Assembly: GCA_964434315.1 (NCBI GenBank)
Contig: CAYSUX010000002.1
Location: 1 to 37,194, forward strand
Origin: an uncultured archaeon
Lineage (GTDB): Archaea; Thermoplasmatota; Poseidoniia; MGIII; CAYLMJ01
Length of the DNA stretch: 37,194 nucleotides
Reading direction: 5' to 3'
Shown here in pieces: positions 1,465-28,523 of the stretch. Positions within the stretch are counted from its first letter, which is position 1. Every line of letters starts with the position of its first letter. The notes below the pieces were generated by a model. That model was given only the letters and a program-made list of their open reading frames with translations. It did no database searches and was not told the DNA's origin. A program made the translations under genes and the position numbers.

Positions 1465-2910
1465 ATGCGCGTATCAGTCATGGGCACCGGCTACGTTGGC
1501 CTGGTTTCCGGCGTGGCCCTGGCCGAGCATGGCCATCAGGTGGTCTGCCTGGATGTCATTCCCGAGAAGATCGAGACCCTGAACAGGGGCGTCAGTCCCA
1601 TCTTCGAGCCCGGCCTCGATGAGCTACTGGACCGCCATGTGACCGCCGGGACCCTCAAGGGTTCGCTGGATATCGAAACCGAGATCGCCGCCTCGGATAT
1701 CACCTTCATCTGCGTGGGCACCCCCAGCCGACCCGACGGCTCCATCGATCTGGCCTACATCGAGCAGGCCAGCGCCAGTGTCGGTCGCGCCCTGGCCAAG
1801 AAGGCTCCGGATTCCTATCACACCGTTGTCGTCAAATCCACCGTGGTGCCGTTGACCACCGAGACCGTCGTGGGTCCGGCCGTGACCGAAGCCTCGGGTC
1901 GTGTTCCGGGGAAGAACCTGGGTCTGGTGATGAACCCCGAGTTCCTGAAAGAAGGGGCCGCCATCGAAGATGCCATGAACCCGGACCGTATCGTCATCGG
2001 CGCCGGCGACGAGCACGCCCGCAAGATAATGGATGAGCTCTATTCCCGTTTCCAATGCCCGGTGCTCCATACCGATCCGCGTACCGCCGAGTACATCAAG
2101 TACGCCTCCAACGCCTTTCTGGCGGTCAAGATAAGCTTCGCCAACGAGCTGGCTAACGCCGCGGAGGCCTGGGGCATCGACTGGCAGATCGTGGCCGAAG
2201 GTATGGGCCTTGACTCCCGTATCAGCCACAAGTTCCTGGTCCCGGGGGTCGGTTTCGGTGGCTCCTGCTTTCCCAAGGATGTCCGGGCCATCCAGGCGAA
2301 GGCCAATAGTGACGGGCATCCCTCCCGGGTCCTGGCTGCTGCCCTGGAAGTAAACGAGGTCCAGCCGGCCCGGGCTCTTGAGCTGGCTCTGGAAGCCCTG
2401 GCCGCCGCTACTGCCCCCGCCTCCTCCACCGCCCTGGTCGAGGCCGCCGCCCCGGACCCTAGCGCCACCACCGCTGACGCCACCGGCCTCAAAGGTTGCA
2501 AGGTGGCCCTGCTGGGTCTGGCCTTCAAGCCCGATACCGACGATGTGCGAGAGACCCGGGCCCTGCCCATCGCCCAGGCCCTGACCGCGGCCGGCGCCCG
2601 GGTCACGGCCCACGATGTGGAGGGCACCGAGAACTTCAAGGCCCTGGTCAGGGAGAAACTGGCAACAGATGGAAAGGCGGGCGAACTACCCCTCCGGTAC
2701 ACCGACGACCCCGAGGTCGCCCTCAAGGACGCAGAAGTGGCCATCGTCCAGGTCCCTTGGACCATCTACCGTGAACTGCCTGCCGTCAGATGGGCCGAGC
2801 TGATGTCCGGACCCAGGGCCGTCATCGACTGTCGCCGGGGACTCGATTCCCAGGCTTTCGAGGCCGCCGGGCTGGTGTATCGGGCGATCGGGTTCGGGCG
2901 GCCTTGTTAG
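1465..2910 (+). CDS. ugd: UDP-glucose/GDP-mannose dehydrogenase family protein (UDP-glucose 6-dehydrogenase-like) with an Ala/Thr/Ser-rich insert
   Basis: N-terminal Rossmann motif VMGTGYVGLVSG, catalytic-Cys motif GFGGSCFPKDV, and C-terminal GLAFKPDTDDVRE. An extra low-complexity linker (LAAATAPASSTALVEAAAPDPSATTADA) precedes the C-terminal domain. Confidence 0.88.
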   Translation: MRVSVMGTGYVGLVSGVALAEHGHQVVCLDVIPEKIETLNRGVSPIFEPGLDELLDRHVTAGTLKGSLDIETEIAASDITFICVGTPSRPDGSIDLAYIEQASASVGRALAKKAPDSYHTVVVKSTVVPLTTETVVGPAVTEASGRVPGKNLGLVMNPEFLKEGAAIEDAMNPDRIVIGAGDEHARKIMDELYSRFQCPVLHTDPRTAEYIKYASNAFLAVKISFANELANAAEAWGIDWQIVAEGMGLDSRISHKFLVPGVGFGGSCFPKDVRAIQAKANSDGHPSRVLAAALEVNEVQPARALELALEALAAATAPASSTALVEAAAPDPSATTADATGLKGCKVALLGLAFKPDTDDVRETRALPIAQALTAAGARVTAHDVEGTENFKALVREKLATDGKAGELPLRYTDDPEVALKDAEVAIVQVPWTIYRELPAVRWAELMSGPRAVIDCRRGLDSQAFEAAGLVYRAIGFGRPC

Positions 2911-3022
2911 CCCGGCTTTCCTACGGCCGGGTGGTGGTGGGGGCTCGAGGGTACACTGCTTTCCCTTTCAATTCTAGGTAATCTACATTCATCAGTATTA
3001 ATCTGCGGCTTTTTTTGCAATT

Positions 3023-3053
3023 AGACACGGATTTCACAGATTACACGGATTTT
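3023..3053 (+). repeat. array A: three phased 9-bp units (CACGGATTT CACAGATTA CACGGATTT)
   Basis: Read directly: agaCACGGATTTCACAGATTACACGGATTTt. It is a near reverse complement of array C at 4144-4172. Confidence 0.85.
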
Positions 3054-3120
3054 ATTATTTATGAGGGGAGGATTGCAAATCTAGCTTACGCTGACCTGTT
3101 TGAGGTTCTTATGGAAAATA

Positions 3121-3183
3121 AGACACGGATTTCATAGATTTAATTAAGAAAAATCTGTGAAATCAGTATGTTAATCCGTGTCT
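3121..3183. repeat. array B/B': imperfect palindrome built from forward and reverse 9-bp units
   Basis: AGACACGGATTTCATAGATTT (3121-3141), a 9-nt spacer, AAATCTGTGAAATC, a 9-nt insert, then ATCCGTGTCT (to 3183). Confidence 0.8.
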
Positions 3184-3475
3184 ATAATTCTGAAGCCTTA
3201 GCGCGTCTGCTCTGTCCAGTGGCGGCAAGCCTGCTCCGCCCAGAATAGATTAATCGGGACATGTCCTGTAAATACCTTTTAAGGCCAAGCCGAGGAGACT
3301 AGCGGAGCTTGGTAGCAATGAAAACTCCAAGCACGAAGCACGACCAAGCCATCTATAGCTCCTCCTCACAAAGACAGCTACACGGCCCTGGCGGCTTGAC
3401 CGCGTTGGGCAGCGGGGCTCACGAAGAATCCCGTGATGTTTGACACTGAAGTTTGATGAAAGTCATCCCAGCTAT

Positions 3476-4072
3476 TCATAATTGGCCCGACTCGTCTAAT
3501 TTTTCTACTAATAAACTAGCTAGAACCAAATGATGTAGGGCTCTTTCAGGACTAATAACAATGTTTTCATGTGCTTTTGGGTTTCGGATACCACTCATTG
3601 CCCCCGCAAAGAGATACATATAACCTCGCTGAATAGATTGGCCAGTTTCTGTAGTAAGGTCGTCAAGTACAATTATTGGTTTTTCAGGTTTAAAAGCTGA
3701 AAACATCAAGTCCTGACCATCCTTCTCTACTCCAGTCTTGTTACGATATAATCTCTTTACAATCATATTAATTTCTTTAAAAGATGCCTCAACTGAATCT
3801 GCGAATTCACCATTAGTGAAACGTTTTTTTGACACATCACAAACTTTCGTGTGTATTATATCCCAAACACTATTAAACTGCACATCTATTGAGTTCTTTG
3901 CGTCAATTTTTTCAATGTTTAAATTCCAAATTCGTCCGTCAGTTAAGAAATTGAAACTAGTCTCACACTTAACGCATACTCTTTGCTCTGCGATCTTTAT
4001 TCTAAGATCATTCGAGTTTTTGTAGAATCCCTGTGGAGTTCCACATTCTCGGCAATACGCTAATAATAGCAT
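3476..4072 (-). CDS. zinc-ribbon + HEPN-domain protein (TIGR02391 / Hypoth_Ymh-type), predicted RNase/toxin-like
   Basis: N-terminal CRECG...CVKCE (4 Cys). The C-terminal GAMSGIRNPKAHENIVISPERALHHLVLASLLVEKLD contains the R-x4-H HEPN motif in the sequence context of the TIGR02391 family. AT-rich codon usage. SD-like GAAGGTGG lies upstream of the ATG. Confidence 0.65.
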   Translation of the reverse strand: MLLLAYCRECGTPQGFYKNSNDLRIKIAEQRVCVKCETSFNFLTDGRIWNLNIEKIDAKNSIDVQFNSVWDIIHTKVCDVSKKRFTNGEFADSVEASFKEINMIVKRLYRNKTGVEKDGQDLMFSAFKPEKPIIVLDDLTTETGQSIQRGYMYLFAGAMSGIRNPKAHENIVISPERALHHLVLASLLVEKLDESGQL

Positions 4073-4143
4073 AGAGTTACCACCTTCATCCCTTAAAATC
4101 TTCTATGATAACGTTATAATATCTTCGATTTCATTAACACTAT

Positions 4144-4172
4144 AATCTGTGTAATCCGTGAAATCCGTGTCT
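4144..4172 (-). repeat. array C: three reverse-orientation 9-bp units
   Basis: AATCTGTGTAATCCGTGAAATCCGTGTCT, an inverted partner of array A. It lies ~70 bp upstream of the HEPN gene start. Confidence 0.85.
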
Positions 4173-4235
4173 AATTTCCCACTTACACACCAGTAAACAT
4201 AGTGTTTCAAGATTCAATGTCATTAATTTAACCGC

Positions 4236-4247
4236 GAAATCCGTGTC
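4236..4247 (-). repeat. array D: single reverse unit (GAAATCCGTGTC) just 3' of the GxxExxY gene
   Basis: Read directly. It lies 6 nt from the stop codon at 4253-4255. Confidence 0.6.
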
Positions 4248-4252
4248 AAATA

Positions 4253-4624
4253 TTAATCTAATATTTTCCTCCTCACCTCTACGGAAGGACCAAAGTTAAT
4301 CAGCAATCCTATTTCAATCCCGGTGGCTTTAAGATAATTAACCAGTTGAACCTCATGGATTTCAATTAACTGTCTGACGGCCTTTAATTCCAAAATAACC
4401 ATATCCTCAACGACAATATCAGCGATGTAATCTCCAACAACATGGCCTTTGTACTTTACAATGACTGGCTTTTCCTTTTCAGCCTTCAATCCTATAGCAT
4501 TCAATTCGATACAAAGTGCATTTTGATATACTTTTTCTAGAAAACCATAACCCAATTCATTGTGAACAGTGAAAGCTGTCCCGATTATCTTACCAGTCAA
4601 ATCCTCATGTTTTAAATCACCCAT
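4253..4624 (-). CDS. GxxExxY protein (PD-(D/E)XK nuclease superfamily, TIGR04256-like)
   Basis: Has the GFLEKVY (GxxExxY) motif and the nuclease core D-x12-ELK (DYIADIVVEDMVILELKAV). About 123 aa, typical for the family. SD-like GGAGGG lies upstream. Confidence 0.8.
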   Translation of the reverse strand: MGDLKHEDLTGKIIGTAFTVHNELGYGFLEKVYQNALCIELNAIGLKAEKEKPVIVKYKGHVVGDYIADIVVEDMVILELKAVRQLIEIHEVQLVNYLKATGIEIGLLINFGPSVEVRRKILD

Positions 4625-4937
4625 TTGCTACCCTCCACTTCAATCCGCATCTAATTCACTCCGAGATAGCCTTCGCTGGTCCGGGCACCCCTCTTATCAC
4701 TCCATCCATCAGCCACGTCAAGGGTCAATTCAGGCGTGCCGGGAACCGCAACCGGTTCGGTGGTGTTCGTAGTGGCGCCCATCGTGGTCTGGGCGCGGTA
4801 GTCGGGCATACGAGGCTGAGGAGCTGAAGAGGTCAGGGGTCAAAGGTGTTTTGGATAGCACCCTCGAAAGTTCACGATAGCTATTGCCTCTCAAGTTGGC
4901 TGATGGCAGAACAGGCGTGAGGGTGCCTTGGAATGTA

Positions 4938-5006
4938 AGACACAGATTTCACAGATGATATGGATTCTGGTTAAATATAATCTGTGAAATCCGTGAAATC
5001 CGTGTC
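4938..5006. repeat. array E/E': imperfect palindrome of forward (2) and reverse (3) 9-bp units
   Basis: AGACACAGATTTCACAGAT (4938-4956), a 22-nt spacer, then AATCTGTGAAATCCGTGAAATCCGTGTC (4979-5006). Confidence 0.85.
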
Positions 5007-5099
5007 GAAATTTCTTATTTTGTAACCGATCGACATGGCTACTCTACTCACCGGTCAGTCCAGTTTCTCCAGGTCCCGGAAGGCCTGGTACGACGGACC

Positions 5100-5648
5100 T
5101 CACTCCCATCGATGGTGGGCCGGGTGGCCCTCCTCCACCGCCACGAACAGACCTTCGCCGGTGGCCGTTATCTCGCCTTCGGCCTCCACTGCCATCTCCA
5201 CCTTCACCTTCGGGTCATCGATGCTGACGACCTTACTGGTGATACGCAAAGGCGGGCCGTAGGGCGTTGGCCTCAGGAATCGGACAGAATAATGAGCTGT
5301 GACAGTGCTGGGCATCTCGGCGTCCGGCGAATCTGTCAGGCCCCGGGCGTCCAGCAGGGCCACGGCGGCGGTCCAGTTGCCATGACAATCCAGCAGCACC
5401 CCCAGGATACCACCGTTGATGGTATCGCCAAATGCCTTATGGTGAGCCGCGGGTTGAAAATCGCAATTGAGACCCGTTCCTTCCTTTAAATATGGTTCGT
5501 CGGGAAAGCGATGACTCTTGATCCGGAGGCCCAGTTCATTGGCGGGTCCGCAACCAAAGCAGATCCCGTCGGGACCGTATCGGTCCTGCATTGACGCCTT
5601 TGTGATCGATGTCTCTTTGATCATGGACTGGAAAGATGATACCCCCAT
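5100..5648 (-). CDS. PaaI-family (hotdog-fold) thioesterase
   Basis: Has CFGCGPANELGL near the N-terminus and INGGILGVLLDCHG (the hGG...D hotdog motif). Confidence 0.7.
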   Translation of the reverse strand: MGVSSFQSMIKETSITKASMQDRYGPDGICFGCGPANELGLRIKSHRFPDEPYLKEGTGLNCDFQPAAHHKAFGDTINGGILGVLLDCHGNWTAAVALLDARGLTDSPDAEMPSTVTAHYSVRFLRPTPYGPPLRITSKVVSIDDPKVKVEMAVEAEGEITATGEGLFVAVEEGHPAHHRWE

Positions 5649-5759: not shown

Positions 5760-7850
5760 GTGACCATTAACTGGCTGATGTCCATGGCCGAGTTGACAGC
5801 AGAGAACCACGAGAACGCAGAAGCCCAGTCATCCCCATCTTCTGAAGATGGTGATGGAACGGTTACCGATCTCATCGAAAATGGCTATGATGAACTCATC
5901 GAACCCGCAGTCCCGAAGCCGGAAGAACTGCTGGAAGAGACCTCCGAGAGCATGGATGGCATGGATGATGTGGAGTCCGGTTCGTCTGGTTCGTCTGGTT
6001 CGTCTGGTTCGTCTGGTTCGTTCGAGGACCTTTCGGTGGAAGGGGGAGCCTCCAAACCACTGGAGATCGAGCTTCCATCCGCAGAACCCGAAACAGAGAT
6101 GGCCAACCAAGAGGGGATTGTACCACCCGAACCGGAGCCCCTGGGACTGGCCCACACAGTGGAGGTGACCCAACAACGGAAGCGGTACGATCCCTGGGCC
6201 CGACTGGCGATCCTCGAGGAGTCCCTGTCGCTGATAGCCCTCCTGTCCATCGCCCTGCTGGCCTTCACATTCCTGATCCTGTTCAAGTTCAGTACCCATT
6301 CGAACATCGATAATTCGCTGGTGTTCAACATCATCACCATCGGTGTCAGCATGGCCTGGGCCCTGTTCGCCATCCTGGGTTGCGGCTATCTGATGTCCAG
6401 GCCCCTGCTCGAGCGGGTCGATGCCGAATGTGGCAGGCTCTGTACGAATCTGCGTCAAACCGCCCTGGTCCTGATACCTCTGGGTTTACTCCTGGGTCTG
6501 GCCGGGTTGTTCATCGAACAGGACTTTCTGGGCCCCCTGGGCTTGGGTCTGCTGACCGCGACCCCCCTTCTGGCCCTCCAGGGCCGGGGAATGATACCCA
6601 AACGGGCCTGGCCTCCCGCCACCCTGATCACCCTGGGCGCCATACTGTTGGGTCCCGGGGTCTGGGAGGCCGGAACTCTGCTGGGTTCCGATACCGCGGT
6701 GTGCGAGGCGGTCACCGCCCTCATGTTACTGACCGGGGGAGCAATGGTGATGGGAGGCGCCATAGCCATGCGCCATCCCAATGATTGTCTATTCCCCTGG
6801 GTGCTCGGTGCTGTCATCCTGGCCGGTGTGATCGGCCTGGGCATAGGAGATAATTTCGGGATCGGGACCATGCTGGCCGGAGCCGGCGGAGGCCTGTTGA
6901 TCGTCGGGGGCCTCATCGGCTGGCAGTGGCGAACCGGTGAGTTACTTCAGCGTTCAGCTATCATCGAGGCCGGAAAGGAAGCCATGAACCAGGGTAGACC
7001 CGTGAAGGCCCTAACCAATTTCGACCTGGCCTTCCGTCTGGCATCCCGGGACGGTATGTTGCTCAACGAACCCCGGCTCTGGGCCCTGAAAGGGGCTGCG
7101 CTATCACAGCAACGCAAGTACCGGCGAGCCCTGGTCTTCCTGGGTGTGGCTTTGGAGCTGGACCCCACCGATGAACTGGTCTGGTACGAGCGAGGCAAGC
7201 TATATGGCAGCCTGAAGCGATGGGAAGGGGCGATAGAATGTTATTCCAGAGCCGTTTCCTTGCGCCACGATTACGTCGAGGTCTGGCTCGCCCTGGGCGA
7301 GGCTCATCTGAAGGTCAACGCCAACCAGGAGGCCCAGGCCGCCTTTGGTCGCATAACCCAGTTGAACCCCAGGGATATCAAGGGCTGGCTGGGGCTGGGA
7401 CGGGCCAATGCAGCCCTGGGTCAGGTACGTCAGGCGGTCCAGGCCTTTGACACGGCCAGCCGGGTGGACCCCGGCGCTGTGAGCCCCTACATGGCCAAGG
7501 CCCAGGTCTACTACTCCCTCAACCTGTGGGAGAAGTCCCAGCAGGCCTACGAGATGGTCATCCACCTCGATCCGAAATCGGCCGAGGGGTGGTGGAAGAT
7601 GGCTGGCTGTTACCTGGAGTTGCAACAACCCCAGATGGCCCTGAACGCTCTCAACAATTTCATCGACCTGGAGCCAAAGAATGTGAATGGATTGCTACGC
7701 AGGGCCGCTCTACATTACGATGAGGAGGAGTATGGCGAGGCCGTTTCCGACATCCATCTGGCCATCGAGATCGAACCTGACAACGAGGCGGGCCAACAAT
7801 TGAAGAAGGTTGTTCTTAGCCACCTCGACAGCCGGGGGAAGTGGCATTGA
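5760..7850 (+). CDS. polytopic membrane protein with an acidic N-terminal region, an (SGS)n repeat and C-terminal TPR repeats
   Basis: Roughly 8-10 hydrophobic helices in the middle. The C-terminal ~270 aa contain repeated 34-aa W/Y..LG.....g....A...f..a..ldP patterns (TPR). GTG start at 5760, with alternative ATGs at 5778 and 5784. Confidence 0.6.
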   Translation: MTINWLMSMAELTAENHENAEAQSSPSSEDGDGTVTDLIENGYDELIEPAVPKPEELLEETSESMDGMDDVESGSSGSSGSSGSSGSFEDLSVEGGASKPLEIELPSAEPETEMANQEGIVPPEPEPLGLAHTVEVTQQRKRYDPWARLAILEESLSLIALLSIALLAFTFLILFKFSTHSNIDNSLVFNIITIGVSMAWALFAILGCGYLMSRPLLERVDAECGRLCTNLRQTALVLIPLGLLLGLAGLFIEQDFLGPLGLGLLTATPLLALQGRGMIPKRAWPPATLITLGAILLGPGVWEAGTLLGSDTAVCEAVTALMLLTGGAMVMGGAIAMRHPNDCLFPWVLGAVILAGVIGLGIGDNFGIGTMLAGAGGGLLIVGGLIGWQWRTGELLQRSAIIEAGKEAMNQGRPVKALTNFDLAFRLASRDGMLLNEPRLWALKGAALSQQRKYRRALVFLGVALELDPTDELVWYERGKLYGSLKRWEGAIECYSRAVSLRHDYVEVWLALGEAHLKVNANQEAQAAFGRITQLNPRDIKGWLGLGRANAALGQVRQAVQAFDTASRVDPGAVSPYMAKAQVYYSLNLWEKSQQAYEMVIHLDPKSAEGWWKMAGCYLELQQPQMALNALNNFIDLEPKNVNGLLRRAALHYDEEEYGEAVSDIHLAIEIEPDNEAGQQLKKVVLSHLDSRGKWH
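5979..6023 (+). repeat. in-frame 9-bp tandem repeat (GGTTCGTCT)x4.9 encoding SGSSGSSGSSGSSGS
   Basis: Read directly. Confidence 0.9.
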
Positions 7851-8905
7851 CCTTCCAATTGAGGGTCGTCCATCCCCTCTACATAACCGGCAGTACCGAC
7901 GGGGAGGCCATCGCCGAGCGTTTTCTTTGCGATATCGGTTACATCCCCCCCGGCACCGGGCAGAGGCTGGAAGGAGGCGCCCGGAGCTCGGCCGGATTCA
8001 AGCTCTTCTATCAATGCCTGGCAGCCTTCCCTCTTCGTAGTTGGACCGCTGCCGAACTGACTCCCAAGGTAGGCGCCACACCGGCGACCATCTATCGTCA
8101 CCTGCTCCGATTAAGGGAGTTGGGGCTTGTGGCCGAGGAGGCCCAGCAGCGGTATCGTTTCTGGCACCATTCACTGACAGAGGCCTGGGAGGGGGTCGAA
8201 TGCCACGCCCGGCTCTGCCAGCGAAACTATGGCAAGATCATCGACCGCATCGAGACCCTTATCGGTGACACTTCGGCAATTCCAGGTTCGGCCCATAATA
8301 CCCCGGATTCCCAGGATGCTCAAGATGCCTCGGATACCCCGGATACCCCGGATACCCCGGATACCCCGGATACCCCGGATAGTCCCGGTCGATCAGAAGG
8401 TCAGGAATACCCTCTTGCCGCACCCCCCGGTACCTTCAATCTCACCCTCACCGAGCTCGTTCCCTTTTCGGAGGCTCCCGTTTTAGCGACCAACGAAGCC
8501 GTAACCCTTCTGGAACGATTGCTATTGGCCTGTGGCTATCTTGATCGCAGGGGTGGCAAGGTGGCCTCGGACATCCCCTTTCGCCTGTTCAACGACTGGC
8601 TCCTGAACCGCCGCGACCGGGTCTGGACCGCCGATGAGCTGGCGGTGGCACTATCCACCAGTCGCCCCACGGTCTATCGCCACCTGAACAGATTGGAGTT
8701 GATGGGCTGGTTGGAGAAGGTCATTCTCAAGGAAGGTCATCCACGTATCACCGGTTTTCGCCTGAAGGGAGGCAGCCTGAGCCTGGCCTGGAGGAAGATC
8801 GAGGATAAATTGGAGCTGGGACTGCGGGGCTACCGAAAGGCTATAAATCAGTTGGCCGGTCTGGCTCATTCCCCACAGGAGCAACAGGAGCAAGACCATG
8901 GGTAA
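7841..8905 (+). CDS. tandem winged-helix (two wHTH modules) DNA-binding protein with a (DTP)n linker
   Basis: Internal duplication: WTAAELTPKVGATPATIYRHLLRLRELGLV versus WTADELAVALSTSRPTVYRHLNRLELMGWL (ArsR/TrmB-like recognition helices). The GTG start overlaps the upstream stop. Confidence 0.6.
   Translation: MALTFQLRVVHPLYITGSTDGEAIAERFLCDIGYIPPGTGQRLEGGARSSAGFKLFYQCLAAFPLRSWTAAELTPKVGATPATIYRHLLRLRELGLVAEEAQQRYRFWHHSLTEAWEGVECHARLCQRNYGKIIDRIETLIGDTSAIPGSAHNTPDSQDAQDASDTPDTPDTPDTPDTPDSPGRSEGQEYPLAAPPGTFNLTLTELVPFSEAPVLATNEAVTLLERLLLACGYLDRRGGKVASDIPFRLFNDWLLNRRDRVWTADELAVALSTSRPTVYRHLNRLELMGWLEKVILKEGHPRITGFRLKGGSLSLAWRKIEDKLELGLRGYRKAINQLAGLAHSPQEQQEQDHG
8332..8385 (+). repeat. in-frame 9-bp tandem repeat (GGATACCCC)x5 plus one diverged unit, encoding (DTP)5
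   Basis: Read directly. Confidence 0.9.
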
Positions 8906-11604: not shown

Positions 11605-12627
11605 ATGCACCTCGCCGTAGCCCAGGCCCCGGTCAAACTCGGGAACATAGCCGCCAACCTGGCCACCGCCCGGCAACTGGCCACCCAGGCCCGGGAGGCC
11701 GGGGATGGCGAACTGGACCTGCTGGTCCTTCCGGAGCTGTTCATCTCCGGTTACATGTTGCGTGACGAGCTTATCAGACTGGCAGAGCCATTACCGCCCC
11801 TGCCGAGCCTGTCATTTCCACCGAGCCTGCCTGCCAACAGCGATATGGATGTCATGGCTTCCAATGTCGGCGGACAGGATGGCGGCCAGAGTGGTGGCAT
11901 GGGTGGCATGGGTGGCTTGAATGGCCGGAAGGGGGTGAGCGGCGGTGCAGGCGTGAACGGCCTTTGGGGCTTCAGCCATCGCCAACCGGTAGCTGCCTCG
12001 GATTTTTCCTTTGGACCGACCATGTCCGGCTTGTTGGAGCTGGCATCCGACGAGGGTTGCTACATCACCTGCGGCCATATCGAACATGAAGGCCGGGGAC
12101 TTTTCAACGCCGGTGTCATGGTGGGTCCTGAAGGCTATATCGGTCACTACCGCAAGATGAAGCTCCCACATACAGGACCCTTCGAGGAGCCCAGCTTCTT
12201 TGGCGAGGGCGGCCCCGACCAGAGACCGGTCTTCAGCCTGCCGTTCGGTATCGTGGGTCTGCAGGTATGCTACGACATCCACTTCCCATTGCCCAGCCTG
12301 CGATTGGCCCGGGACGGAGCCCAGCTTATATGCAATCTCTCGGCGGCGCCCAACACCTCCCGTTATGTCTTCGAGCGGTTGCTACCGGCCAGGGCCATCG
12401 AGACCTCCTGCTACTGGGCCTATGCCAACAACGTGGGAGTTCAGGAGACCATGATGTTCTGGGGCGGGTCACAGATACTGGACGCCAGGGGTGATGTGAT
12501 GGTCAAGGCTCCGTACAACGAGCCCGGTGTGGCCGTGGCTAAAATAGACCTGTGTGATGTGGAGTCCGTCCGGGGCTTTCGCCCGACCCTGATGGACGGG
12601 GCCGGGGATCGGCTGAACTTTCCCTAG
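11605..12627 (+). CDS. carbon-nitrogen hydrolase (nitrilase superfamily) with a ~80-aa Gly/Met/Pro-rich insert
   Basis: Glu-Lys-Cys triad contexts LVLPELF, HYRKMKLP and LQVCYDIHFP. The insert runs PPLPSLSFPPSLP...GGQDGGQSGGMGGMGGLNG. Confidence 0.8.
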   Translation: MHLAVAQAPVKLGNIAANLATARQLATQAREAGDGELDLLVLPELFISGYMLRDELIRLAEPLPPLPSLSFPPSLPANSDMDVMASNVGGQDGGQSGGMGGMGGLNGRKGVSGGAGVNGLWGFSHRQPVAASDFSFGPTMSGLLELASDEGCYITCGHIEHEGRGLFNAGVMVGPEGYIGHYRKMKLPHTGPFEEPSFFGEGGPDQRPVFSLPFGIVGLQVCYDIHFPLPSLRLARDGAQLICNLSAAPNTSRYVFERLLPARAIETSCYWAYANNVGVQETMMFWGGSQILDARGDVMVKAPYNEPGVAVAKIDLCDVESVRGFRPTLMDGAGDRLNFP

Positions 12628-13158
12628 GAGGGTCAATCGGGATGGCATAGGGGCGGGCGCACCATCTCCTTTAGGGTTCAGGGCCTGGCTACGGCTATGG
12701 GCGTGAGGGGCTCGCCATGGCCATATGCTACGCAAAGCGAGCCCGGCTTCGGCCTGAGCAATATCAATAATGATATTTTTTATATTTATTAAATATTGAT
12801 TTTTCACTATATATAAAGGTTTCCGACCGTGATAATGAACCTAGGTTGTCGTCGACAAACTTGGATATAAAAGGCTTGCGATAAAAAACCGATTTTTATA
12901 TATATGAGATACGTTAATAGATATATTGACACTATGTCAACCAATGCCAACGAACCTAGCCCGAAAACATCCGCGACCATGGCTTCCACCCAGCTTGCCA
13001 CATCTCTGGTCCTCTGGAGGCAGTGGCTGAACGCAATGGAGAAAGGAAGCCTCACCTTCAGGACCGAGGTCTGGACTTGAACAGTATGCTCGCCATCCAT
13101 TCAAGTTACAGGAGAGTCAGGCTGACCCGGATCGCAAACTCAGAACTGAGCGTTGGAT

Positions 13159-26174: not shown

Positions 26175-27380
26175 ATGGAGAATGAATGGGGAATGGGGAA
26201 AAAGTTAATATCGTTCTATCATCTTGTTCGTTCTGACGATGGAGGATTCCACATCTCCTATTTTCATCTTTCGAGATACTCTAGACCCCGGAGTCTGTTC
26301 GTAGTATCGTGTCTGCTGTTCCTGACCGGCCTGCTCTTGTTCCCTTTCGCGTCTGCTTATGAAAATAGCGGGACCCTTAGAGAGGGTCAGCTATTCAGGC
26401 GCGATGTATCGGGCGAGTCCGATAGTTCTAAATATCTTGAGATCAGGATCAACTTTACCTATGGAAAACTGGGCGATGTCTATATCCTGACCCATGACGA
26501 GTATGATAATCTATCAGCGGGTCGTGATTTCGAGGCTGCAAAAGAGTTTGAAAGACGATCCTCTTTTGGTTTTTCCTGGATGCAAAAAGATGATGATAAT
26601 TATTATCTGGTCATAGATAACGCCGACAACGCGCACCCCAATGATGCCCGGCCGAACGGTGACCTTTCATTCGAGATCGAATACCATCAAGAGGATTACA
26701 AGGACGATGAGACGATCTGGCAATTATGGGCAGTGGCAATATGTACAACGATATTCATTGTCGTCGTTGTCATTGTCATCGCCAGGGTTGTGACCCGGCT
26801 CATCAGAGGCCCTGGAGAGCAGGCGGACCGTGGTGGGATGGCTTACTCTTCCATGGATGTGGATATGAATATGTACTCGAATCCCCCTCCTCCGTCGTTC
26901 GATGGTAACGACAGATACCAGTCTCCTTCCGACCGAACTCTGACCCCGCCTGGACCACCCGGTCGTGCGATGTCTTCGAACCGGGATACGCAAAGTGATC
27001 ATCGAACTCGTCCCGGGTCTCCCATCGCTGAGGAATACAAACCGCCCAAACCACCTGACGGAACCGTTGAGCGTCCCCGGTCTGCTCCCCCTCCTTTGCC
27101 AATCCCTTCACCCATAGCGGATTTCATGGATGACCCGATTACCAAGGCTCCGCCTGCGACCAAGGAAGATGATGTGTTTCCAAAGCCACCGAGTTCCAGG
27201 AAAGAGCCGGATGTCGAGAACAAATGCCCCGAGTGCCATGAGACCATTCGATCCGACTCGAAGATATTCCCACATAGCCCCACCCCCCTGAAAAAAAGAC
27301 CCACGATCTGCCCAGACTGCGGCGCTGATGTTGAGCCCGATTGGAAGGCCTGCCCCAGATGTACGGCCGCTCTGCGATGA
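26175..27380 (+). CDS. single-pass-anchored protein: signal anchor, ectodomain, TM, Pro-rich cytoplasmic linker, C-terminal double zinc ribbon
   Basis: TM segments LFVVSCLLFLTGLLLFPF and WAVAICTTIFIVVVVIVIARVV. C-terminal CPECH...CPDCG...CPRC. The 5' half is lower in GC. Confidence 0.55.
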   Translation: MENEWGMGKKLISFYHLVRSDDGGFHISYFHLSRYSRPRSLFVVSCLLFLTGLLLFPFASAYENSGTLREGQLFRRDVSGESDSSKYLEIRINFTYGKLGDVYILTHDEYDNLSAGRDFEAAKEFERRSSFGFSWMQKDDDNYYLVIDNADNAHPNDARPNGDLSFEIEYHQEDYKDDETIWQLWAVAICTTIFIVVVVIVIARVVTRLIRGPGEQADRGGMAYSSMDVDMNMYSNPPPPSFDGNDRYQSPSDRTLTPPGPPGRAMSSNRDTQSDHRTRPGSPIAEEYKPPKPPDGTVERPRSAPPPLPIPSPIADFMDDPITKAPPATKEDDVFPKPPSSRKEPDVENKCPECHETIRSDSKIFPHSPTPLKKRPTICPDCGADVEPDWKACPRCTAALR

Positions 27381-27647
27381 CCGTTGAATCCTGGTGTGGC
27401 GCTCACTGCCCCTATCGCCAGGCCTCGGATGCCATTGCCCGCAGGCAGGTCGAAGGTCCGGGCATGGTGGACGGAACGAAGGACAGCAGCAGCCGAGGGC
27501 GGTGTCGGAACCCTGACCGTATTTCTGGCCATAGCCGCCGAGGTCTTGGGCTGGGCATAATCACAATTAGGAACTCGATAATTATCAGTGATAATCAGTG
27601 GGTTCAAAAATCTTATAAAGTAGATATCATTAACTAATTAAGAAAGG

Positions 27648-27745
27648 TGGTTCGACCAGATCAGCACCCGCACCCTTACCTCCACGTCGTGTTATCGGCT
27701 TCCGGTTCATCGAGTGCGTTTTCACGGTCCAATCTGGTCGAACCA
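27648..27745. repeat. 14-bp perfect inverted repeat (TGGTTCGACCAGAT / ATCTGGTCGAACCA) enclosing 70 nt
   Basis: Read directly. It could be a MITE-like element or the closing stem of a small RNA. Confidence 0.5.
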
Positions 27746-28142
27746 AATCAGGTATTACGGGCAGGCCTAAAAAGGCTTGCCGCGATGATTGTCATAGATG
27801 ATATTCAATCGCAGAGGATACCCTCCCGCACCGATGATATGGAAGTAATCACTAACGAGTAATTACATAAAGAAAATGGAAGATTAATGCTCTCGATTTG
27901 GTGGGTTTTATCTCGACTATATATAGGGGTATTATTCCTTCAAATGAAACACTTTAAAAACAGTACATATGTCGGTGGTACCTAAAATTGCTAATTTGCA
28001 TCCGATTTGACTCGTCCAGGCCCGAAGCGTTCGTTTCAGAATATATATTTCATATGCAAGTTCAAGACCTGAATTGAACAGTTTGGCATAGTATCCAAGT
28101 CATAACAAAAACGAACCGGGAACGCCTAGGGCTTTGTCATGG

Positions 28143-28281
28143 CCGGTAGAGTGCATTCTCACTGAACCGACACAGAAAGCTTTTCAAAGCAATAGCACTA
28201 AGGTAAAGCACCGGGGGTTCGAACCCTCGTGGCGAGACGCCGACGGGTTGAAAGCCCGGCGCATTTCCACTCTACCACGGC
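28143..28281. other. tRNA-like imperfect palindrome (possible decayed tRNA / att remnant), not a functional tRNA call
   Basis: GGTAGAGTG arms at 28146-28154 and, reverse-complemented, at 28269-28277. Central GGGGGTTCGAACCCTC T-arm-like hairpin. The minus strand has an anticodon-arm-like GGG-CTTTCAA-CCC. No 7-bp acceptor or D-arm can be drawn. Confidence 0.25.
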
Positions 28282-28523
28282 ATTTGCATTTGAAGCCCTT
28301 CAATCGATAGAGCTGTCTTCTGGACCATGCTTTGTTCTTCATATTGCGGTTCCCCCATGGGCAGGCAAATACACAAAGCGGGATAATAAAGCCCCACCGG
28401 CAGACCGCCATACCTGCTATTTTATATACCATGTCCAACACCAATACGATTTCAGTCACCAAAACCTTATTTAACTAACCGGGCTCCACCGCCTCCATTC
28501 CGTTCTTTCGGAGCTGACCCGAA

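Follow-up and report, generated by a model that had tools for sequence, protein, structure and literature searches.

A stretch of 37,194 nucleotides (nt) from an uncultured archaeon (contig CAYSUX010000002.1), referred to here in its entirety as the window, carries a compact foreign insert, the island, between two convergently transcribed host genes. One of these, ugd, encodes a UDP-glucose/nucleotide-sugar dehydrogenase, and the other encodes a hotdog/PaaI-type thioesterase (Table 1). The island holds two minus-strand open reading frames (ORFs): ORF1, for a zinc-ribbon protein with a Ymh/TIGR02391 HEPN domain, and ORF2, for a predicted minimal PD-(D/E)XK nuclease of the GxxExxY family. Copies of a repeat that forms inverted arms and hairpins are interspersed with the two genes, and the association of this repeat with GxxExxY genes in other bacteria and archaea is the main finding of the work described below.

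The island is a horizontally acquired, foreign segment. Relatives of the host were obtained by a protein search with the thioesterase and subsequent contig look-ups (loci L129-L131, L140, and L135, with thioesterases 80%, 78%, and 66% identical to that of the window); a metagenome scan with the same protein found no relative. Window and relatives have a common gene order, namely TPR protein, thioesterase, ugd, PUA protein, and exosortase-like protein. In four relatives the site is empty, and the ugd and thioesterase genes are convergent and either overlap or lie 3-9 nt apart. Specifically, blastn similarity to L129 ends at window position 2904 and restarts at 5096, and the intervening 2.19 kb is therefore extra DNA, including two internal stretches with a guanine-plus-cytosine (GC) content of 53-56%. 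The empty-site junction of the relatives reads ...GGTCGACCT|CACTCCCAGCGG, while the left and right junctions of the window read ...GGGCGGCCT|TGTTAGCC and ...GACGGACCT|CACTCCCATCG, respectively. At most, an imperfect target duplication of 6-7 nt (CGGCCT versus CGGACCT) marks the island's edges, which are not themselves repeat arms, and the insertion has altered the last codons of ugd (...GRPC* versus ...GRPHSQR* in the relatives).

Composition agrees with this delimitation. Computed directly, GC content is 0.423 for the island and 0.585 for the rest of the window; as a profile, it runs at 0.35-0.49 over roughly 2900-4800 versus about 0.58-0.69 in the flanks, and ORF1 and ORF2 have values of 36.2% and 36.6%, respectively. 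Eight metagenome contigs that encode an identical ORF1 or ORF2 carry the island at 99.4-100% identity and in the same context; they represent one population and provide no independent information. Homologues of the thioesterase bear the names Candidatus Poseidoniaceae or Poseidoniales, and from these names the host was judged to be an archaeon of the Poseidoniales (Marine Group II). A preliminary description, made from the letters of the window, had already proposed an AT-rich foreign island here, flanked by ugd and a thioesterase gene and holding two minus-strand ORFs with Shine-Dalgarno-like elements. Profile searches agree on the flanking genes, the empty sites agree with a foreign origin, and both ORFs are present, each with such an element about 7 nt upstream of its ATG as read from the sequence (AAGGTGG for ORF1, GGAGGG for ORF2). 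Its limits of 2990-5010, however, have to be widened to those in Table 1, and the island is not uniformly AT-rich.

Table 1. Features of the island and its flanking host genes, in window coordinates.
Feature	Position	Strand	Description	Basis or detail
ugd	1465-2910	+	UDP-glucose/nucleotide-sugar dehydrogenase; flanking host gene	Profile searches
Foreign insert (island)	2905-5095		2.19 kb, 42% GC, where ugd and the thioesterase gene converge at their 3' ends	Limits of blastn similarity to relatives L129, L131, L135
Degenerate arm-like stretch, AATCTACATTCATCAGTATTAATCTGCGG	2981-3011	-	Followed by a T-rich spacer, then arm E	Tentative; read directly
Arm E, AATTAGACACGGATTTCACAGATTACACGGATTT...	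3019-3064	+	Left arm of the pair around ORF1	Pattern match at 3024
Hairpin D	3112-3192	+ arm / - arm	Cargo-free palindrome	Pattern matches at 3122 (+) and 3152-3184 (-)
GC-rich segment 1	3185-3475		Internal segment, 53% GC; content not recognisable	Pfam, Rfam, folding, and similarity searches
ORF1	3476-4072	-	198 amino acids; N-terminal CxxC...CxxC zinc-ribbon and C-terminal Ymh/TIGR02391 HEPN domain
Arm C	4131-4176	-	Right arm of the pair around ORF1	Exact 19-mer at 4153-4171
Arm B	4229-4254	-	Follows the ORF2 stop codon at a distance of 6 nt
ORF2	4253-4624	-	123 amino acids; predicted GxxExxY (PDDEXK_3) minimal PD-(D/E)XK nuclease
GC-rich segment 2	4625-4938		Internal segment, 56% GC, upstream of ORF2; content not recognisable	Holds a 52-amino-acid ORF, 4651-4809 (-)
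Hairpin A	4929-5015	+ arm / - arm	Complete palindrome at the right island edge	Exact 19-mer at 4988-5006
Thioesterase gene	5100-5648	-	Hotdog/PaaI-type; flanking host gene	Profile and protein searches

The ORF1 protein was described at the outset as a zinc-ribbon joined to a TIGR02391/Ymh HEPN domain, and profile searches agree. Residues 73-192 match Hypoth_Ymh (PF09509) with an E-value of 4e-26 and 91.6 bits (cut-off 25), and TIGR02391 is matched with an E-value of 7e-20 and 71.4 bits (cut-off 39.45). The zinc-ribbon cysteines are C7, C10, C33, and C36. The Rx4H motif reads R163-N-P-K-A-H168, and R163, N164, P165, K166, and H168 are invariant in a 20-sequence alignment. No solved structure could be detected by sequence for either island protein. 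The AlphaFold2 (AF2) model of ORF1, with a predicted local distance difference test (pLDDT) score of 92.9, has a small, beta-rich N-terminal domain with the four cysteines and a helical region at residues 75-194; its top Foldseek matches are all HEPN proteins (2hsb, 1ufb, 2q00, and AbiV), albeit with weak E-values of 0.4-1. Full-length relatives, at 51-55% identity, form a small and mostly archaeal clade with the same CxxC...CxxC N-terminus, and they are encoded by solo genes, without repeats, among archaeal housekeeping genes such as those for ribosomal proteins, eIF-2B, Cdc6, and HisRS. The Ymh family at large consists of HEPN proteins with a conserved catalytic motif, either solo or fused to varied N-terminal domains, and has been placed in the contexts of conflict, restriction-modification, and abortive infection (Anantharaman et al. 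2013, PMC3710099). In PADLOC, ORF1 matches PD-Lambda-3_B and Aga_HEPN, and both matches are confined to the HEPN part. The island belongs to neither system: the alignment to PD-Lambda-3_B is partial, covering positions 143-263 of 270 only, ORF2 has no PD-Lambda-3_A match in PADLOC, and no Argonaute is encoded in the island, which holds just the two ORFs. A search of PHROGs returned one family of unknown function for ORF1 and none for ORF2.

Likewise, the assignment of ORF2 to the GxxExxY branch of PD-(D/E)XK nucleases stands. Matches to PDDEXK_3 (PF13366; E-value 3e-42, 144 bits, cut-off 22) and to TIGR04256 (GxxExxY; E-value 4e-42, 143.3 bits, cut-off 35) are far above threshold, and the motif residues G27, E30, Y33, D69, E79, and K81, from the stretch G27-F-L-E30-K-V-Y33, D69, and E79-L-K81, are invariant across a 30-sequence alignment. 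The AF2 model (pLDDT 85.7) resembles Cas4 SSO0001 (Foldseek E-value 1e-4), lambda-exonuclease-like proteins, and the Holliday junction resolvase Hjc (E-value 2e-3). PADLOC returned weak Cas4 matches only, and ORF2 is not a Cas4 protein, scoring 16.1 bits against TIGR00372 versus a cut-off of 65, with no cas genes in the island. The best non-self relatives are 70-79% identical. The family itself is enormous, with over 7,500 clusters at E <= 1e-20 among the 8,000 candidates scored, the nearest relatives alone. The preliminary description held it to be mainly bacterial, yet archaeal members exist, and mixed bacterial and archaeal clades of PF13366 had already been noted in a survey of the PD-(D/E)XK families (PMC3424549).

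The preliminary description, which was right about the domains, motifs, archaeal host, and foreign origin, overlooked the repeat family that structures the island. When the 9-nt-periodic sequence GACACGGATTTCACGGATT was searched with up to three mismatches, seven matches were found in the window, all of them within 3024-5006 of the island, and 100 shuffles used as a control gave no match (0 expected). A looser search added one weak match at 27117, probably by chance, and the window holds no other true copy. Each arm is composed of two or three tandem 9-nt units, CACGGATTT or CACAGATTA, following the pattern GA-CACGGATTT-CACGGATT-(T/A)CACAGATT. Arms E and C make up an inverted pair of 46 nt, 87% complementary, that encloses ORF1 but not ORF2, which puts each gene in a repeat-delimited unit of its own. 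Between them are two repeat arms, C and B. Hairpins D and A match each other in direct orientation at 77-84%, and as single-stranded DNA they fold at -15 kcal/mol (z = -5.1) and -13.8 kcal/mol (z = -3.2), respectively. Read along the plus strand, the order is the degenerate stretch, T-rich spacer, arm E (+), hairpin D, GC-rich segment 1, ORF1, arm C (-), arm B (-), ORF2, GC-rich segment 2, and hairpin A. The junction at 2981-3064 tentatively consists of a minus arm, a T-rich spacer, and a plus arm, a layout seen also at 5823-5903 and 6782-6843 of the euryarchaeal locus L222, which is described below. A search of the island for terminator-like sites returned none.

The repeat is widespread. A scan of one genome per species for the exact 19-mer present in arm C and hairpin A returned at least 119 stretches, on genome contigs from many bacterial and archaeal phyla. 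Among the matches listed, the bacterial hosts are Verrucomicrobiota, Chloroflexota, Bacteroidota, Ignavibacteria, Acidobacteriota, Desulfobacterota, Planctomycetota, and Azospirillum, and the archaeal hosts are Methanosarcinales, ANME-2, and Methanoperedens. Another 23 stretches of predicted viral contigs carry the 19-mer; a viral or plasmid origin of the island was considered and rejected, as the repeat-bearing viral contigs have no homologue of ORF1 or ORF2 and no similarity to the window. An inverted partner lies within 1.5 kb of 71 of the 132 exact arms among the matches listed. Most of these pairs are separated by loops of 20-40 nt and are therefore stand-alone hairpins, 60-90 nt in length and located in intergenic DNA beside gene ends; a second, small group of pairs is spaced at 350-450 nt.

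The repeat is associated with GxxExxY genes. A tblastn search with ORF2 found such a gene adjoining the arms in eight of the 119 listed repeat loci. Five of the eight, from Verrucomicrobia (L018 and L026) and Azospirillum (L088, L125, and L127), have the gene tightly enclosed, with about 400 nt between arms that begin a few to a few tens of nt from its start and stop codons, and in the remaining three (L033, L042, and L105) it is abutted by a hairpin or arm. Terminal inverted repeats are thus present both as the 46-nt pair of the island and as the tight arms around GxxExxY genes in other genomes. The arm-enclosed genes of the three Azospirillum species lie upstream of what is seemingly the same downstream gene, and this apparent orthologous site suggests vertical inheritance of the gene-bearing copy. 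Azospirillum replicons in a plasmid collection have 1-3 arm sites each, cargo-free hairpins among them, and high-copy behaviour of the REP (repetitive extragenic palindromic) kind was not supported in this genus at the sensitivity used. Approached from the opposite direction, three of three GxxExxY genes reached independently by protein search are flanked by the same or a diverged CACGGAT-type arm. The GxxExxY gene P0303 of a euryarchaeal genome (L222-L226) sits tightly between arms. P0246, a close ORF2 homologue (L227-L233), has a plus arm 3 nt after its stop codon, a layout like that of arm B and ORF2. Finally, a GxxExxY homologue on a viral contig (L257) has diverged inverted arms in which the CACGGAT core is kept. 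Among the matches listed, GxxExxY is the sole recurrent gene family inside arms, and most other ORFs beside arms are host-like in composition. No description of the repeat or of its link to GxxExxY genes was found in the literature searched, including under the names GxxExxY, PDDEXK_3, and TIGR04256, and both the association and its cross-domain spread appear to be undescribed there.

Two of the repeat loci have further structure of their own. In the contig of the euryarchaeal metagenome-assembled genome (MAG) at L222:3800-6900 (also L223-L226), arms are found between toxin-antitoxin pairs (BrnT/CopG, DUF4258/MqsA, PIN, and MNT/HepT) within a sugar-nucleotide gene cluster, with the recurring junction "- arm, TCTGGGACGTTTTTTA, + arm"; the region looks like a cassette array built on the repeat. 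Arms likewise separate partial duplicates of an epimerase-like gene there, with a 300-nt direct repeat (4402-4701 and 5981-6280). A split-gene or intron-like insertion was considered for this region and dismissed, since the epimerase-like ORFs are different paralogues or partial duplicates and not halves of one gene. In an Ignavibacteria MAG contig (L015:214-793), a 123-nt unit that includes one arm is present in 4.7 tandem copies at 95% identity, and a separate array of 10.7 copies with a 21-nt period follows at L015:931-1155.

The association does not extend to ORF1. Scanning metagenomes with an alignment built from ORF1 relatives yielded 80 loci, which together with four earlier ones gave a sample of 84 Ymh loci (395 kb). 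In this sample, tblastn with five diverse GxxExxY queries found no GxxExxY gene at any of the 84 loci, and none had a true copy of the repeat; conversely, tblastn with ORF1 found no Ymh gene in any of the 119 listed repeat loci. The two families therefore lack co-occurrence in the sample examined, the outcome that the preliminary description had itself named as telling against its proposal of an RNase and a DNase joined in one defence or addiction module. No conserved cognate partner of the toxin-antitoxin or addiction type is evident either, with GxxExxY absent from all 84 Ymh loci and the closest ORF1 homologues being solo. The PADLOC comparison that it had suggested produced matches for ORF1 through the HEPN domain and weak Cas4 matches for ORF2, and no system model fits the pair. 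In the loci examined, the pairing of ORF1 and ORF2 is unique to this island, and two arms lie between the genes; they therefore appear to be neighbours by insertion history, not partners, and a real functional link between them is very unlikely.

The remainder of the island was searched for additional components. Neither of the GC-rich segments has any similarity to the window, the relatives, or any fetched locus, and they were rejected as host DNA or as copies of other loci; segment 1 may have travelled with the insert from a previous host. Their predicted RNA folding does not exceed that of shuffled sequences (z = +0.5 for segment 1 and -1.3 for segment 2), and nothing in the whole window passes Rfam gathering scores. 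A structured RNA or RNA antitoxin was accordingly discarded, the sole Rfam candidate in the island being a chance match at the microRNA level (E-value 0.4). Six small island ORFs considered as candidate antitoxins match no Pfam family, and several of them are merely translated repeat ("TDFTDYTD"), so they were rejected as antitoxins or genes, with the exception of the 52-amino-acid ORF in segment 2, which was called as a gene by metagenome annotation. The island has no integrase, tRNA, or att features, the window's sole tRNA being at 28205, and profile and ORF scans of the island detected no recombinase and no transposase domain.

Taken as a whole, these observations favour, with modest confidence, a reading in which the island comprises separate repeat-bounded selfish cassettes, with the GxxExxY gene tied to the repeat and ORF1 an independent passenger. 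The island would then be a mosaic of such small cassettes, horizontally acquired by one Poseidoniales population and lodged between convergent stop codons. The repeat family exists as inverted arms that either stand alone, forming hairpins, or bracket or abut cargo, and the GxxExxY nuclease is its characteristic cargo in many phyla. The ORF2 protein, probably a dimer like other minimal PD-(D/E)XK enzymes, may recognise and cut the palindromic arms or a cruciform extruded from them, after which repair or recombination could copy or keep the element, by analogy with a homing nuclease or with REP/RAYT systems; cargo-free hairpins would be derivatives or targets. That the ORF2 nuclease drives mobility of the element is possible but doubtful. 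Just as tentatively, GxxExxY (PF13366) genes and CACGGAT-type arms might constitute a so far undescribed class of minute elements, mobile or self-maintaining, in which an enzyme of about 125 amino acids acts on its own flanking palindrome. Elements of this kind would cross bacterial and archaeal phyla with nearly unchanged arms, leave hairpins behind, and sometimes gain toxin genes, as with the HEPN gene here. ORF1, in its own arm-bracketed unit (3019-4176), could encode a stand-alone RNase toxin of the abortive-infection type whose activity is probably conditional, the zinc-ribbon being a putative regulatory or sensing part; such conditional RNase toxicity, if real, may help the island to persist.

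Several observations weigh against the cassette reading. The arms of the island are not cleanly nested, and minus arms outnumber plus arms. ORF2 is outside any tight palindrome and has instead 310 nt of GC-rich DNA upstream, and the outermost 115 bp or so and 85 bp or so of the insert are not repeat sequence. Only eight of the 119 listed repeat loci have a GxxExxY gene, within an 8-kb piece of each, and 1-3 arm sites per Azospirillum replicon is a low copy number for a system of the REP kind. For co-occurrence, the sample extends only to the 84 and 119 loci, many of them on short contigs. Finally, because the CGGCCT/CGGACCT duplication is imperfect, entry was possibly by illegitimate recombination of a donor fragment and not driven by the element. 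An alternative is that the island is a passive scrap of a donor chromosome, a repeat-rich intergenic region integrated by illegitimate recombination, whose genes are neutral passengers that will decay and whose repeats and nuclease have no role in mobility. The ends of the insert, which are not arms, the lack of a clean target-site duplication and of a recombinase (in profile and ORF scans), the GC-rich segments inside the insert, and the lack of any other true repeat copy in the window are all in keeping with this alternative. It is nonetheless unlikely, as both ORFs are full-length with invariant catalytic residues, and the repeat recurs with GxxExxY cargo in distant phyla of both domains; arms so nearly identical in such hosts are hard to explain without active spread or strong constraint on the arms.

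The arms might instead act in RNA, as stems at which transcripts around small selfish ORFs are processed, stabilised, or terminated, in the manner of 23S rRNA intervening sequences. Where arms enclose an ORF, they would pair in the transcript as a long stem whose loop carries the gene; the stand-alone hairpins occupy intergenic DNA near gene ends, and a precedent exists in the Coxiella 23S intervening sequence, a 428-nt selfish element with an ORF (PMC4990558). Such a role is quite unlikely on present evidence: the island has no terminator-like sites and no Rfam match, and spread to new genomes would be left unexplained, although an RNA role is compatible with one at the DNA level. A joint defence or addiction module, in which one of the two proteins senses or licenses the other or in which a toxin is matched with its partner, has in its favour that ORF1 and ORF2 are adjacent on the same strand, 180 nt apart, that both are compositionally foreign and intact with catalytic residues kept, that established defence proteins (PD-Lambda-3_B and the Argonaute-associated HEPN) contain the Ymh HEPN domain, and that several samples share the pair at 99-100% identity. 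That identity merely reflects one population, however, and the zero counts among the 84 and 119 loci, the solo occurrence of the closest ORF1 homologues, the typical position of GxxExxY genes alone beside their own arms, the two arms that place each gene in its own unit, and the lack of a PADLOC model for the pair leave the module with very little probability.

Since the defence-system reading does not hold, no new immune mechanism is at hand, and both protein families are already known; neither solo HEPN toxins nor small selfish nuclease genes are unusual. What the island offers is a testable link between a very large family of unknown role and a specific palindromic repeat that is preserved almost letter for letter across distant bacteria and archaea, and with a clean empty site in relatives the insert serves well as a natural example. 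Should the nuclease act on the arms, this would amount to a new type of minimal selfish element, would explain many small orphan genes and intergenic hairpins, would assign a function to the very large GxxExxY family, and would document the flow of such elements into the Poseidoniales, abundant and uncultured marine archaea.

Elsewhere in the window, a few further features were recorded. An AT-rich (0.37-0.43 GC) and apparently non-coding region at 27640-28200, with no Rfam match, includes a perfect inverted repeat of 13 nt, GGTTCGACCAGAT ... ATCTGGTCGAACC, whose two copies are some 75 nt apart. It lies beside an 81-nt tRNA-Glu(TTC) at 28205-28285 (-), identified by ARAGORN; Rfam at gathering scores reports no family there, tRNA included. 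A second small patch of low GC content (0.41-0.47) is found at 12600-13100 and holds a 97-amino-acid ORF at 12807-13100 (-), whose GC content of 45% contrasts with the 57-63% of the genes around it. A run of GSS repeats, SGSSGSSGSSGSSGS, is present in the TPR protein (5760-7850), and a run of DTP repeats, DTPDTPDTPDTPDTPDSP, in the product of the adjoining ORF (7841-8905), both being low-complexity linkers. The ugd product has 481 amino acids in the window, versus 466 and 443 in relatives and 476 in the L001-L003 contigs; an Ala/Pro/Thr-rich stretch at 2400-2560, AAATAPASSTALVEAAAPDPSATTADATG, within the very GC-rich 2200-2800 region, may be a variable linker.

At the level of the proteins, ORF1 shares a HEPN domain with Rx4H motif with other Ymh proteins, PD-Lambda-3 B, and the Argonaute-associated HEPN. 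It differs from them in its short CxxC...CxxC N-terminus, limited to a small and mostly archaeal clade, and in that no PD-Lambda-3 A, Argonaute, or restriction-modification genes are found beside it. In its predicted fold and catalytic D...ExK core, ORF2 resembles Cas4 (SSO0001), lambda exonuclease, and Hjc, the last of which is of similar size (about 120 amino acids). Unlike Cas4, it has no iron-sulfur cysteines (none in 123 amino acids) and no CRISPR context, and it scores 16 bits versus a cut-off of 65.

As to the element, the Coxiella burnetii 23S rRNA intervening sequence (S23p) is likewise a small selfish unit, of about 430 nt, with an ORF enclosed by a stem (PMC4990558). The element described here, however, lies outside rRNA, and its ORF belongs to a different protein family. 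Miniature inverted-repeat transposable elements (MITEs) and their autonomous parents similarly have terminal inverted repeats around a gene or a short loop and insert in intergenic DNA. In contrast to MITEs, no transposase of a known family and no clear target-site duplication are seen here, and some arms are arranged back to back or in tandem. The cassettes and attC sites of integrons, whose attC core is GTTRRRY, present small and often toxin-type genes between imperfect palindromes, and the arrays at L222 and L227 are comparable in having toxin-antitoxin genes in one orientation. By reading, however, the arm consensus has no GTTRRRY core, there is no integron integrase in the island or the examined loci, and the arms are often single in intergenic DNA. 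Finally, REP/RAYT systems (RAYT, REP-associated tyrosine transposase) are characterised by an HUH/Y1 transposase and by a GTAG motif in the REP sequence. Here, the enzyme is of the PD-(D/E)XK type, the arms consist of 9-nt tandem units without that motif, the copy numbers observed are low, and one arm sequence recurs across phyla and domains. The likeness lies in the short intergenic palindromes, in a small enzyme gene that is itself flanked by two inverted copies, and in Azospirillum, where the gene-bearing copy is at an apparently orthologous site, judged by shared downstream flanks, in three species and hairpins without cargo are found elsewhere.

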